Positions 5,501 to 61,281 of a stretch of DNA of 64,000 bases are shown here, one piece after another. Position 1 is the first letter of the stretch, and each line of letters starts with the position of its first letter. The DNA is taken from positions 121,086,001-121,150,000 of the forward strand of contig OX597817.1 of NCBI GenBank assembly GCA_951406725.2. The letters run 5' to 3'. The notes below the pieces were generated by a model, which saw only the letters and a list, made by a program, of their open reading frames with translations, ran no database searches and had not been told where the DNA came from. The DNA comes from Octopus vulgaris. Its lineage: Eukaryota. The position numbers and the translations under genes are program-made.

Positions 5501-5608
5501 AAAGTGTTTCTTGATGAGCTGTTGTGGCTAACCATTCAATTGCAGTTGCAAGATTCAATGCAGTGTTCCAAACAACCACATTGGTGAAACGTACATAGGA
5601 ATAACTTT
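5501..5608 (+). ncRNA. Decayed type I hammerhead ribozyme
   Basis: Stem I aaagtgtttc/ggaat(a)acttt; core TTGATGA (C>T); stem II gctg-t-tgtgg...ccaca-t-tggt; GAAA-CGTACATA (one change from palindromic ACGTACGT-A). Confidence 0.6.
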
Positions 5609-8231
5609 TGTTGCTTTTGCAACCTTGTCAATGGATGTTGACTCTGTCCCTTAAGAACATACATTTACCATTATGTATGTCTGTATGAATGTTTAAGTGT
5701 ATGTGTGGACGTGCATGCATGCATGTATGTATGTGTTCTGTTGGATTTTTAATTATTTGAAGTCTTCTTGTAAGAAAGGAGCTGGTTTCTAACAAATACA
5801 CAAAATACCATCATTGGAATGCAGACAACTAAAACCACCGTCACATTTTGCACTTGAGGAAAGTCTTGTATATTTTTATTGTTCTGCTTACAGATTGTAA
5901 TGTGCATATTAGCTGGTTGATCCCTTTTTATGAAAACCATCACTTATGCTGATTGTCACTTTGGCATCTACTCACAAACCAAATGCACCAATTATTATGG
6001 ATATAATGTGAATTTATAATCTGGGTATAGAAACTGAAGGCTTTGCAGTAATTGTCAACAGTTATCTTCTTTCTCTTTGATTTTTGAAGAAATATCCATT
6101 TGAGAATGTGTGTGTGTGTGCTTTGTGAATGTGTGTAAAGTAATTACTTTATACACAGGAGAAGTTTTACTTTAAAATATACATACAAGTTTTAGGCTAG
6201 TTTTGCATTGTTTGTTATGTATAATAATACGTAACATGGATTGCAAATTGCAAATGATATGAATCGTCATGCATAAATAAACTGAATTTTTAATAATGTA
6301 TAATTTATATAAATTGCAAAATGAGAGATGAATTTTATTTTACGCATAAATTTAAAGTTAAAAGCACCACATAATTTCACGTATTTAATTCACTTGTACG
6401 TCATTTCTATTCTTCTTTTTTCTAGAAGTAAACTCTTCTATAATCTCATCTTTTAACAAGCCACTTTGATTCAATTGCATCAATACATGTTTTCAATAGA
6501 GAATAAACTGAAGTTTTGTTATCCAAGGAAGCAGGTATTTATTTGTTTCAAAGCAGAAAATGTACATTCTGCTGAATCAGTGTTGCTAGGTACAATCAGA
6601 ATAAACTCAACTACCCACAATACTTCTTTGAAGCAATAGAATAAAACTCCTTCCACCACCAACTCAATTAGTCTATGCACATTTTAGCATGAAAACTCAG
6701 GGTGTACATGCAGCATAAGACATCTTATTGTTCAAGCAAATGTAATCAAAGAGAGAACCATAGATATCCTTCAGCTTATTTATAAAATTTTCAAGGAATT
6801 TTTTTTTGTACTTTTTATATTTCTCATTCCAAAGCAACTGGAAAATCGCCGGCTTTGAAAGAGGAAAGTACCTACAATTTATCTGCATGTTTGAGCTATT
6901 GGTTATACTCTGGTTCACTCCATGAAATTAGATTTTTTCTTTTTTCTTTTTCATTTTCTGTTTTATGTTCTGCTAACCTAAGCCCTTCTGAACACAGCAG
7001 AAGCCTAAAGGGCTTTAATTTCATATTCTTTATCATACGTAAGTTGTTGAATCATATCTATCTTCTTGCAATAGAATGGAACACCAGACACTTTGATTTG
7101 TAGCAAATTTTAAAGAGAATTTACATGACCACATCATAATACAAGCCCCATCCTAAATTTGTCCAATAATCTACATCCACTGAGATAAATGTTACAAGGT
7201 TGAACAAAATTACTTTTGAACCCCAGGAGGGGAGCTCAAAATTCAATTGGTGCTGTGAGGTTTTATAAAAAAAAAATTTGTTTTTACTTTTGGGGCTGGC
7301 CTATCAGATATTCATGGGCCCCTTCTTTGGCTCTCCAAGTTCTGGACCAATGTCCCATTTGAACACTTATATACCCTACAATCAACTTATTTTGAACATC
7401 AAACTTCTCCATCATCTTTATAACATCAACAAAATGTCAGAAGTCAGATCAGCACTAACATCTGTAAATCCAATATATCTTTCATATACTTTTTTATTTG
7501 TTTCAGATGTTGGACTGTGTCCATACTGGAGCACAACCTTGTAGGATTAGACAAAGAAATGAACTTCTACTAATTCTAAGTCTACTTATTTGGTAGAACA
7601 TTTTTGCAGAACCTCTAAGTTTCAGGGACATAAACAAACTGACACTGGTTGCCAAGCAGTGGGGAGACAAACACAAACACACATATGCACATACACAAAT
7701 ACATACAAACACACACATATGTGTATATGACAAAGTTTCCATCTACCAAATTCACTGACAAGACTTTGGTCAGCCCAGAGCTATTGTAGAAGTCACTAGC
7801 CTAAGGTAACCTCAAACTCTATGGTTACAAAGGAACTTCTTAACAACTTGGCAATATTTATTTTACTTTACTTTGACCTTATGAACAAAATACCAAATTG
7901 TTTTGAGAGATGATTTTGACATGACATTTGACATGTCATCAGATATGATTGCAACAAAGAGGACTGAACTTATCTCCTTCTTTATATCACACTATCATCA
8001 ATGATGCCATTTTTCACAAATTATGAAGCTCCTTGAAACACAGTTAAAATAGATAAATGAGTATTCAAGAAAGAATCATACTCTGAGTGAAGTATTCAAT
8101 TTATTGGTTGTAGAACTGGACTCACCATGACCTCACAGTATGAACAGTTATTTTGATAGAAAACACATTGTATTCATGCTCCTCTTCAAAGTTTCCCATT
8201 TTTACTTTTTACTTTCCTAATGTCTGTATAT

Positions 8232-8452
8232 CCATTTAGCATTTAAACCGGTCATATCCAGCCCAAATATTCTTCCTTATTTTACATTCAAACCAGTCAG
8301 ATCCAACTTCTGACATCTATCCTATAATGTTGTTCTAAAAATAAGCTATCACATTATCAAAATCTCAAAGCTGTGAGATAATACATGATTAATTCAACAC
8401 AATGTGAATAAATAGGCACTACATTTAACAGAATAATCTGAATGCTAAAGGG
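8232..8452. mobile_element. piggyBac-type MITE, reverse copy of the 1299-1510 family
   Basis: ccatttagcatt ... aatgctaaaggg termini; interior similar to the reverse complement of 1299-1510. Confidence 0.65.
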
Positions 8453-59229: not shown

Positions 59230-60670
59230 TTAAATAAAGAAAGCGAGATAAGAGAATTACAACAAACACAGGCATATAAATATTTAAGAATCAATGGACT
59301 AGACAATGTATAGGACACAGAAATGAAAGAAGAGATGAAGAAGAAATATTATAGGTACATTAGATAAATACTAAAAATAAAGTAAATAGGCATGATACTC
59401 AAGCTGTTCCCATCATAAATTATACTTGTAATATTTTCAATTTGAAAAAGAACTAGAGAGAGAGAAAGAGAAGAAAAGTAGCTAAATTTTGAATATACCA
59501 TTCATCCAGCACACAGGTTACACACAGATTAAATTTATCCAGGAGAGAAGGAGTTAGTTGTGTCATGCAACTAGATGAATATTATGAAATGTCATCATAG
59601 AAATACATGCACACCTAATAAAAAAACACTGAAAATCTAACATAAATAATTTGAAAATACAAACAAAATCAAGAATCTATTTTCTGCTTTGAAGGAAGCC
59701 AAGAGATACTAAAGCAGCGATTGAAATAGCAATCAGTTATGAGGAAAAAGGAGAAGCCAAAACAGAAATTGTGGCAAAAGCTGAAAGTGAAGCTAAATGT
59801 GGTGCTACAAAATACAATGCTAAAGTGATTGTGAGAGAAACCCCAACATGGCAAACACCTTAAAAGTGTGAAACTCAACAAAGAAGATTTTGCAGAACTA
59901 ACTAAGAGCACAGAATTCAAAGATGGCAGCGAGGAATTTTTTATTGCAGTACAGGATAAGATAAGCGCCATCCTGCTGAAACCACCAAAAGCATGTAATG
60001 AAGCAAAATATATTAGTAACAACAGAATATAGAGGTTAGGAAGAAAAATTAACTATACTATCATTGGCTGCCTGGACTGAGCCAAGCAAAAATAATCCAT
60101 AAGTATAACAGAATCAATTTTAATTCTAGCATTATAAAATACCAACTGATAAAATTTGGTATAAACATACATGAGAAAATGTCATGAGGAGTAACAAAGT
60201 AACCATACTCTTTGAGACATCTATCAATGCAAACAGAGGAATCATGACCTATCTGTCAGATAATATCATCAAGGTCTGCCAGAAAAAAGAAGTGTCTACT
60301 AATCAATGTACCAATCCCAAAACGATGATGATTCAAGCTCGAAGAAACAGAGAAATTATTCAGATACCAATATTTGGAAATGGATGAAATGAATGTGAGG
60401 AATGAAAGCAGAAACAGTCCAAATATTGGTTTCAGATTTTAGCACATGACCAGTAAATTTAGGGGTGTGAGTAAGTCAATTACAACGTCCTCAGTACTCA
60501 ACTGGTACTTATTTCATTGGACCCCAAAAAGATGAAAAGCAAAGTCAACATTAGGGGAATTCGAACTCATAAATGCTGCTAAACATTTTGCCTGACATAC
60601 TAACAATTCTTCCAGTTCACCACCTTAAAACAATCCAAATATTAATAGTTTTCTTGGGAATGTTCAAAAC
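59230..60670 (+). pseudogene. Heavily decayed R4/Dong-like non-LTR retrotransposon (RT C-terminus to RLE endonuclease)
   Basis: Translations IRELQQTQAYKYLRI (YKYLG-like), RLNLSRREGVSCVMQL (RLYLPRKEGGRGL-like), KPQHGK, EFFIAVQD, VTILFETSINANRGIMTYLSDNIIK (ILWD...NRPDIII-like); many stops and frameshifts; (TAA)n immediately upstream. Confidence 0.8.
60428..60627 (-). mobile_element. Family A SINE inserted in the R4-like LINE, 16-bp TSD
   Basis: aaaca(g/a)tccaaatatt at 60412-60427 and 60628-60643. Confidence 0.85.
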
Positions 60671-60915
60671 ACTAAGCAGTGGCATGGTTGTGTGATTAAG
60701 GAGCTTGCTTCCCATCCAAGTTGTTTTGGGTTCAGTACCAATGTGTGACTCTTTGGCCAAGTGTCTTCTACTATAGCCATGATTTGACTGAAACTTTGAT
60801 GAGTGGATTTAGTAAACAGAAACTGAGAGAAGCCTGTTGTATGTCTGTGTATGTATGCTTGTATATATATATATATATATATAATTTTTAATTTGTGTGG
60901 ATGCATATAGAATAA

Positions 60916-61281
60916 TATATCAGTTGAATAAAGTTAAAACACGGTCTGGTTTTCACATTTTTTATTATGGAATTTTAACATTAAAAAAATTATTTTGTAA
61001 TGCTTATATAGTGAAACTAACACTTTCATACATAGTGTACTCACCAGATTTCAAATGTGTTTAACTGATAGTTGAGTTCTTGACAACTTTAGTTCTAATA
61101 GGTACTAAATTTGTGAAGAACTCAACTGTCAGTTAAACACATTTGAAATCTGATAAGTACACCATATACGTAAGCACTAATTTAAGTTTATGAGCATTAC
61201 AAAATAATTTTTTTAATGTTAAAATACCATAATAAAAAACATGCAAACCAGACCATGTTTTAACTTTATTCAACTGATATA
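60916..61281. mobile_element. Fold-back element with ~175-bp arms, each carrying a decayed hammerhead (61013-61052 minus; 61145-61184 plus)
   Basis: atatcagttgaataaagttaaaac ... gttttaactttattcaactgatat; arm consensus gaaat-CTGATGA-gtac-acyat-gtac-GAAA-GCGC-TA-rtttc. Confidence 0.8.

Follow-up and report, generated by a model that had tools for sequence, protein, structure and literature searches.

Type-I hammerhead ribozymes with palindromic stem III in short insertions of Octopus vulgaris: a probable copy-number switch

The window analyzed here, a 64,000-nt stretch of Octopus vulgaris DNA (assembly GCA_951406725.2, contig OX597817.1, positions 121,086,001 to 121,150,000 of the forward strand), carries hammerhead ribozyme motifs at a density of about one per 9 kb, though Rfam misses them. 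The motifs and the foldback insertions are listed in Table 1, where each motif is named by a position in its stem III.

Table 1. Hammerhead motifs and foldback insertions in the window.
Feature	Position	Strand	Stem III	Bits	Remarks
26649, intact type-I hammerhead	26581..26664	+	ACAATTGT, 26649-26656	31.7	core CTGACGA at 26588; long stem II; predicted cut after C26657
25704, identical twin of 26649	25689..25772	-	25697-25704		other arm; absent from first-pass annotation
12144, type-I hammerhead	12064..12165	+	ACATATGT, 12144-12151	24.5	core CTGATGA at 12077; GUU site
33026, type-I hammerhead	32998..33044	+	ACTCAGAGT, 33026-33034, odd length	27.5	core CCGACGA (U4C)
32933, twin of 33026	32915..32961	-	as in 33026	21.1	core decayed to CCAACGA
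28907, hammerhead	28879..28924	+	ACTCTGAAT, 28907-28915	26.1	perfect core CTGATGA; 33026 family, 74% identity; missing from first-pass annotation
49100, decayed type-I hammerhead	49070..49113	+	AGTATACT, 49100-49107	21.1	core with one extra T
5589, probable decayed hammerhead	5501..5608	+	ACGTACAT, 5589-5596	19.9	U3 core TTGATGA; long stem II; single copy
61024, hammerhead	61012..61053	-	AGTGTT, 61019-61024	20.4	left arm; core CTGGTGA
61173, more decayed twin of 61024	61144..61185	+	AGCACT, 61173-61178		core CTGATAA; GTAA replaces GAAA
11887, unconfirmed half motif	11871..11944	-	GAA-ACAGCTGT-C		8-bp stem I
Young foldback	25404..26805	.			arms ~97% identical, 5' ends joined near 26172
Foldback	32882..33077	.			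arms 89% complementary; two outward-facing hammerheads
Partial foldback	28826-28950	.			contains 28907
Older foldback	60921..61276	.			86%; (TA)n flanks; two decayed outward-facing hammerheads

The motifs were scored with a log-odds descriptor of the type-I hammerhead in which the interior of loop III is left unscored. At 20 bits or more it returns 8 of the 137 listed matches (26649, 25704, 33026, 28907, 12144, 49100, 32933 and 61024), compared with 0.24 per set in 302 shuffles. The ninth match, 5589, lies slightly over the noise, which at ≥18 bits amounts to 0.78 matches per shuffle; 45052, 41130 and 14981, at 17-19 bits, lie inside it and were dropped. With a strict descriptor, five of the seven matches score at least 8, whereas 345 local dinucleotide shuffles average 0.15 such matches each. 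The CUGANGA and GAAA boxes and the NUH site are exact in 26649, 25704, 12144 and 28907, and the boxes carry one change in 33026, 61024, 5589 and 49100 (an insertion in the last); descriptor and folding both find three helices round the core, with stem I open-ended. The hammerhead motifs are real, the shuffles excluding chance. An Rfam scan gave no hammerhead match at gathering score and, at E ≤ 10, none among the matches listed (150 of 405), probably because the short stem III and long stem II fall outside the models.

A first-pass annotation of the window had reported a different palindrome after GAA in each family. The palindromes at 26649, 12144, 49100 and 33026 (ACTC-A-GAGT) are found as it wrote them, and its reconstruction of AGCGCT at 61173 gains support from GTA-AGCACT there and GAA-AGTGTT in the inverted twin, which CpG decay would reconcile. 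The 61173 copy itself is outside the top 25 log-odds matches and was recognised by arm alignment. A single CpG-type change separates the sequence at 5589 from the reconstructed ACGTACGT. The minus-strand palindrome is also present, at 11880-11887, one base from the reported ~11879-11886, but its hammerhead status is unconfirmed: we find no CUGANGA box and no stem II, the core scores -7 bits, the match is outside the top 25 by log-odds, and its stem I (10.8 bits) is equalled by 5-9% of chance half motifs. A short inverted repeat lies 5' of this half motif, at ~11930-12020. The pairing of 11887 with 12144 as arms of one element was rejected, their common part being a short inverted piece only.

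Palindromic loops occur far above the chance level. Stem III has a palindromic tetraloop in all three 8-nt cases at ≥20 bits, counting twins once (p ~3e-4, with the threshold chosen after the list was known), and in four of four independent cases when 5589 is added (p ~2e-5), against 394 of 5713 chance matches (6.9%). Half motifs of the form GAAA-S-palindrome-S'-T-H occur six times where 0.70 are expected, and none of 1665 shuffles reaches six. One of them, 42235, bears the 26649 palindrome and has neither core nor homology; we attribute it to chance. In the 33026 family stem III has an odd length, with a free centre base that varies between A and T. The reading of these differences as covariation in each family is not supported here: two independent insertions are present for a single family, and its stem III has no two-sided change. 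In this three-copy 33026 family 95.6% of 45 cells are paired, and the sole two-sided change, from C-G to U-A in stem II, does not reach significance (175 of 500 shuffles) and could reflect CpG decay on both strands.

Repeats were mapped by masked self-BLAST, since microsatellites swamped the repeat finder. Four insertions have a foldback layout in which the ribozymes face outward and adjoin (TA)n. The young foldback has an internal period of 534 nt in both arms, each of which holds 1.2-1.4 units and one hammerhead (the left arm is ~768 nt), and the 3' ends of both arms lie at (TA)n arrays, with unequal outer ends. The period implies that the template was tandem or circular. In minimum free energy folds of read-through transcripts, 84/84 and 47/48 hammerhead bases pair with the antisense arm, and the active stem III is absent from the predicted fold of the 534-nt circle. 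A TATATA run occurs within 200 nt downstream of six of the seven insertions, compared with 36% of random positions, a weak enrichment as some of the runs are inside the element. There is no same-strand tandem hammerhead pair in the window: twins are on opposite strands, and the sole same-strand relatives, 28907 and 33026, are 4.1 kb apart. Hairpins without a hammerhead are also present, at 44154-44325 and 34803-34880.

No long reading frame spans any motif, and among 300 of the 311 filtered frames of at least 45 aa there is no Pfam match to a reverse transcriptase (RT) or GIY-YIG domain, all Pfam matches being sub-threshold. A LINE-like reading frame was also noted, with at least 120 homologues listed. 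The link to Penelope-like elements (PLEs) rests on architecture, because no RT or GIY-YIG match was found. Specifically, the insertions show partial tandem or inverted 5'-truncated copies, a hammerhead near the 3' end and a microsatellite target, the traits of PLE derivatives, and by analogy the layout is that of non-autonomous PLEs or retrozymes.

We compared monomers and dimers with a secondary-structure model, whose energies leave out tertiary contacts and Mg2+. For six of the seven motifs the strand-swapped homodimer is predicted to be more stable than two active monomers by 10.6-15.9 kcal/mol (4.4 for the decayed 61024), and forming stem III in a monomer costs +2.1 to +5.6 kcal/mol. The stem III duplexes of homodimers range from -4.6 to -11.1 kcal/mol, again in six of seven (+3.0 for 61024), whereas cross-family duplexes range from -2.6 to +0.9. 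Heterodimers carry a penalty of 6.1-22.6 kcal/mol, the mean being 11.5 when only the palindrome is exchanged and 4.2 when only stem I is. The calculations support the view that a palindromic stem III favours the double hammerhead and that heterodimers are disfavoured. The pair 28907 × 33026 has a stem III duplex of -9.2 kcal/mol, stronger than both homodimers (-1.3 and -7.4); as part of the very unlikely kin-address reading discussed below, the A- and U-centred variants may be complementary partners. Family-varying stem III palindromes and cleavage as dimers are already described in the available parts of PMC4209133 and PMC3088659.

The reading that we favour, with a probability of roughly 0.75, is that these are type-I hammerheads located in the terminal repeats of insertions, short and mostly decayed, that belong to several non-autonomous PLE or non-LTR retrozyme families in an AT-rich genome, and that the palindrome serves as a copy-number switch. 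Anatomy, palindromic stem III, foldback layout and the 534-nt unit are read directly from the sequence; the switch is inferred. Published work has it that a stem III of 1-2 bp is unstable, and that two copies on a tandem transcript swap strands into a double hammerhead in which both palindromes join into a single helix and every stem I is paired between copies. A tandem precursor would then be cut to unit length by paired hammerheads, while the unit-length RNA, probably circularised and with a single hammerhead, would stay intact and could be reverse transcribed in trans by a PLE enzyme, giving cDNA longer than one unit in which the cut site is preserved, as each arm of the young foldback shows. 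The switch rationale and the circular-template model are both published, as are the derivation of retrozymes from pLTRs and, in the accessible text, the PLE hallmarks of inverted 5'-truncated copies and opposite-strand hammerhead pairs. Several reports count against the switch: dimeric PLE minimal hammerheads cleave weakly in vitro, 8/9 Xenopus retrozyme dimers do not cleave, hammerhead catalysis is dispensable for Anolis PLE insertion in vitro, and many invertebrate hammerheads of 2 bp plus tetraloop cleave well as monomers. The copies in the window are probably inactive, because there is no same-strand tandem pair and foldback transcripts are predicted to bury the ribozyme.

Monomer cleavage leads to an alternative that we consider unlikely, namely that the ribozymes act as monomers and that the palindromic loops are an ancestral leftover or a mere boost to an adequate monomer rate. 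A coral retrozyme monomer reaches a kobs of ~0.8 per min, most invertebrate retrozymes cleave efficiently, and the 33026/28907 family, variable for A/T at its centre base, can fold stem III as 3 bp capped by a triloop; an axolotl retrozyme hammerhead gives 22% cleavage as a monomer. However, the different palindromes kept in four of four tetraloops imply ongoing selection on loop self-complementarity, and none of the seven unconstrained monomer folds adopts the active form. Dimeric activity through palindromes, as first proposed for these motifs, agrees with the in silico preference for homodimers and with published work, but to require two copies for cleavage goes too far for stems of 2 bp plus tetraloop: the majority of invertebrate retrozyme hammerheads are efficient as monomers.

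The first-pass annotation had also proposed a family-specific pairing code that could limit damage from solitary insertions; as a selected trait, it would mean that co-resident families carry different palindromes so that pairing occurs within a family only and cross-family cleavage is avoided too. All seven stem III sequences do differ from one another, homodimer stem III duplexes are stronger than cross-family ones for six of the seven motifs, and the palindrome-only penalty exceeds the stem-I-only penalty in 10/10 pairs. However, in 84-97% of draws a random palindrome set equals or exceeds the observed orthogonality (P 0.84-0.97), and palindromes are all different by chance in 57-82%. Stem I, whose strands are exchanged in the double hammerhead, is a second barrier, with fewer than four contiguous pairs in 37/42 cross-family pairs, and cis pairing on a tandem RNA requires no code. 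Palindromes are also reused: in the available part of PMC4209133, a palindrome is common to distinct families in 8/11 multi-family species (our own count from Fig. S3), and two Aedes families share one of 10 nt. A selected code is thus very unlikely, and we see just as little prospect for its extension, in which stem III and stem I together form a selected orthogonal address and activation is confined to kin RNAs, possibly acting in trans. If such a code held, it would amount to RNA-only kin recognition and supply orthogonal two-part ribozymes ready for use. Palindromes would differ between families because any palindrome works and the families are far apart; on present evidence drift explains the differences, with family specificity a probable by-product shared with stem I, and limiting damage from solitary insertions is plausibly a by-product as well. 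Our literature search, which did not reach the text of Lunse et al., found no publication on heterodimer selectivity.

Least probable of all is that the hairpins are DNA-transposon MITEs that captured hammerheads, as long inverted repeats at TA sites and the hammerhead-free hairpins might suggest, or that the motifs are chance, as the Rfam result might, since the shuffle statistics rule out the latter, while asymmetric palindromes spanning whole elements, the 534-nt period and unequal outer ends fit retrotransposition rather than terminal inverted repeats, and outward hammerheads recur in each of four unrelated or independent foldbacks.

With this window, a known class of elements gains about seven insertions. 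The young foldback, in which the template exceeds one unit and the cut site is intact, illustrates the circular-template model neatly. As far as the available parts of each source go, the closest relatives are the hammerheads in PLE terminal repeats (Cervera and de la Pena 2014, PMC4209133), which are likewise type I with a CUGANGA/GAAA core and follow the consensus 'GAAAN Palind NUH', with palindromes that differ by family, opposite-strand pairs close by and mostly solitary copies. The shrimp representative there has stem III AGCGCU, equal to that inferred at 61173, and U3 cores as at 5589 occur in its Fig. S3. In contrast, the window has no adjacent PLE reading frame, stem II carries an unusually long insert (51-68 nt) in three of its copies, and the additional base that follows A9 in the minimal consensus is missing from most. 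Similar, too, are the repeat-type hammerheads of Aedes and others (Perreault 2011, PMC3088659), whose Fig. S8C tabulates stem/loop III palindromes and draws the dimer; that work covers other species, and we found no cross-family test in the part available. Lunse et al. (2016/2017, RNA Biol) describe, as far as can be told from a partial view, small PLE hammerhead variants with a short palindromic stem III and dimer cleavage on tandem repeats. Naiads, from what is accessible of Craig 2021 (PMC8557442), lack canonical hammerheads, unlike the window elements, and four of our stem III motifs were not found in one supplement file of that paper; its EN+ PLE insertions do share 5' truncation, an adjacent inverted 5'-truncated copy and (TA)n targets. 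Non-LTR retrozymes (PMC7229834; bioRxiv 10.64898/2026.07.22.740005), again judged from the portions at hand, are defined by at least two tandem units with a hammerhead each, whereas the window arms are inverted, with 1.2-1.4 units and one hammerhead; like the window elements, they have a non-coding unit with one type-I hammerhead, solo copies are common, and 534 nt falls within their reported range of 51-972.

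A search of the window against Rfam reported no hammerhead at gathering score and none among the matches listed at E<=10, so we wrote custom descriptors. The strict one, in which a palindromic loop is not a requirement, gave 7 matches in the window, 5 of them at a score of at least 8 against 0.15 per shuffle. A log-odds descriptor, which tolerates decay and leaves the interior of loop III unscored, gave 8 matches of at least 20 bits against 0.24 in shuffles (302 shuffles), followed in rank by the hammerhead at 5589 (motifs are named by the position of their stem III) with 19.9 bits; together these make up 7 insertions of 6 families. 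Judged from sequence, these are real hammerhead motifs. Because the outer two pairs of stem III are required in any hammerhead, only the loop interior is informative: palindromic tetraloops occur in 4/4 independent 8-nt stems compared with 394 of 5713 chance matches, for a threshold set after the list had been viewed.

The four plus-strand stem III palindromes of the first-pass annotation are exact in sequence and position, and the minus-strand one is present, at 11880-11887 rather than ~11879-11886. Two that it had reconstructed actually read ACGTACAT (5589) and AGCACT (61173), the latter reconstruction being supported by the twin, i.e., the hammerhead of the opposite arm, in the same foldback, an insertion of two inverted arms. 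The minus-strand motif, 11887, has a good stem I without core or stem II and on this pattern is unconfirmed as a hammerhead; the half motif at 42235 is a chance one, so such half motifs also occur by chance.

The differences in stem III had also been read as covariation. Sensitive self-searches of the window return as relatives only the foldback twins and an overlooked hammerhead, 28907, whose stem III is ACTCTGAAT compared with ACTCAGAGT in 33026 of the same family; the centre base is free, and no compensatory change separates the two stems. The claimed signal is thus a comparison between unalignable families, with none within a family. Because the middle base of the U-centred 28907 stem is complementary to that of the A-centred one, a duplex of the two variants is more stable than either same-variant duplex.

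In computed energies, closure of the short stem III costs a monomer +2.1 to +5.6 kcal/mol, no unconstrained monomer fold of 7 motifs has the active shape, and in 6 of the 7 a strand-swapped homodimer lies 10.6-15.9 kcal/mol below two active monomers. Both palindromes would form one helix in such a dimer, with stem I strands exchanged between copies. The proposal that cleavage needs two copies holds as an energetic preference, but published results speak against it as a strict requirement: most invertebrate retrozyme hammerheads (retrozymes are non-autonomous hammerhead-bearing retroelements) cleave efficiently as monomers. An axolotl motif of 2 bp and a tetraloop shows 22% cleavage and does better as a dimer, dimers of minimal hammerheads from Penelope-like elements (PLEs) cleave weakly (PMC4209133), 8 of 9 Xenopus dimers are inactive (bioRxiv 10.64898/2026.07.22.740005), and hammerhead catalysis is dispensable for insertion in vitro. 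The published rationale is that multimers are cleaved and monomeric circles protected, the circles serving as templates of more-than-unit cDNA (PMC4209133). A tandem multimer RNA would accordingly be cut, and the spared circle would then be copied; we infer that the 534-nt element of the largest foldback fits this model. The window copies cannot form cis dimers with their own twins; in predicted folds of read-through transcripts, 84/84 and 47/48 hammerhead bases are paired to the antisense arm in the two best foldbacks, and 18/42 and 26/46 in the two older ones.

The first-pass annotation further proposed that the palindromes were selected as a family-specific pairing code. With the A15.1-U16.1 pair forced, heterodimers do carry a computed penalty of 6.1-22.6 kcal/mol, in which the palindrome outweighs stem I (means 11.5 and 4.2 kcal/mol, 10 pairs). 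However, when palindromes of this form are drawn at random, 57-82% of draws contain no repeat and 84-97% are equally or more orthogonal, stem I permits 4 contiguous pairs in just 5 of 42 cross-family pairs, and by our count from Fig. S3 of PMC4209133, of the 11 species for which more than one family is listed, 8 reuse a palindrome (mostly 4-nt; one 10-nt in Aedes). Heterodimers are disfavoured in the model, but selection for a code, as an addition to the known mechanism, is possible but unsupported. Given chance-level orthogonality, the stem I barrier and the published reuse, the modelled family specificity is probably real but incidental.

The mechanism itself is already known, and the motifs add new copies: PMC4209133 describes dimer activity along with a palindromic 15.2-16.2 and loop 3, palindromic stem/loop III is tabulated in Fig. 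S8 of PMC3088659, and palindromic stem III and dimer activity are reviewed in PMC6765202 and PMC6466107; the available sections of PMC10085705 hold nothing further on either. Our literature search, whose scope did not extend to the Lunse paper on PLE dimers, found no paper on hammerhead heterodimer selectivity among the 8 matches listed and none dedicated to cephalopod hammerheads among the 20 listed of 47.

The window (33% GC, with abundant (TA)n, other microsatellites and interspersed repeats) reads as non-coding animal DNA, and the 300 frames compared with Pfam, out of 311 filtered reading frames, gave no match above threshold. At least 3 further SINE-like families recur in it besides the high-copy repeat. 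The LINE-like frame we take to be RTE-like.

Features of the window, by position
Feature	Position	Strand	Remarks
Hammerheads of at least 20 bits (stem III)	26649, 25704, 33026, 28907, 12144, 49100, 32933, 61024		log-odds descriptor
Hammerhead 28907	28879-28924	+	further copy of 33026 family
Stem II inserts of 26649, 12144, 5589	26595-26645, 12084-12140, 5518-5585		51-68 nt
Foldbacks with outward-pointing hammerheads	25404-26805, 32882-33077, 60921-61276, 28826-28950		first largest, last partial
Near-perfect hairpins without hammerheads	44154-44325, 34803-34880, 28465-28515		first two adjoin (TA)n; could be MITEs or the shorter ends of foldback PLEs
Short inverted repeat between 11887 and 12144	11930-12020		with 25-nt hairpin (11957-11981)
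134-aa frame, similar to LINE protein C-terminal end	40973-41374	-	at least 150 homologues, best 90% identical among matches listed
High-copy short interspersed repeat family	14380-14620, 15676-15860, 17633-17866, 21719-22116, 47429-47569, 48282-48461, 50505-50647, 60424-60630, 63172-63268		70-86% identical
Long trinucleotide-repeat region	18556-19536	+	higher-order repeat 108-111 nt; could code a Gly/Cys-rich peptide or be mere microsatellite
Coding-looking charged frame	59835-60029	+	no match in Pfam; may be what is left of an exon or pseudogene
Coding-looking charged frame	58717-58938	-	no match in Pfam; may be what is left of an exon or pseudogene

The ends of all four foldbacks lie in or close to (TA)n. 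In the largest, both arms show a period of 534 nt; at the centre their starts are separated by 9 nt, their outer ends are unequal, and each arm carries one hammerhead with an intact predicted cut site. Traits described for PLEs are 5'-truncated partial tandems, an inverted copy next to them and a bias towards (TA)n (Craig 2021, PMC8557442), hammerhead pairs have been described on opposite strands 100-700 bp apart (Cervera 2014, PMC4209133), and retrozymes are derived from PLE terminal repeats, or pLTRs (2026 preprint, bioRxiv 10.64898/2026.07.22.740005). By analogy, the insertions are probably non-autonomous PLEs or retrozymes. Inverted arms, (TA)n ends and opposite-strand hammerheads are common to the window foldbacks and PLEs. 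The inserts that lengthen stem II in three of the hammerheads here exceed those of most minimal PLE hammerheads in print.
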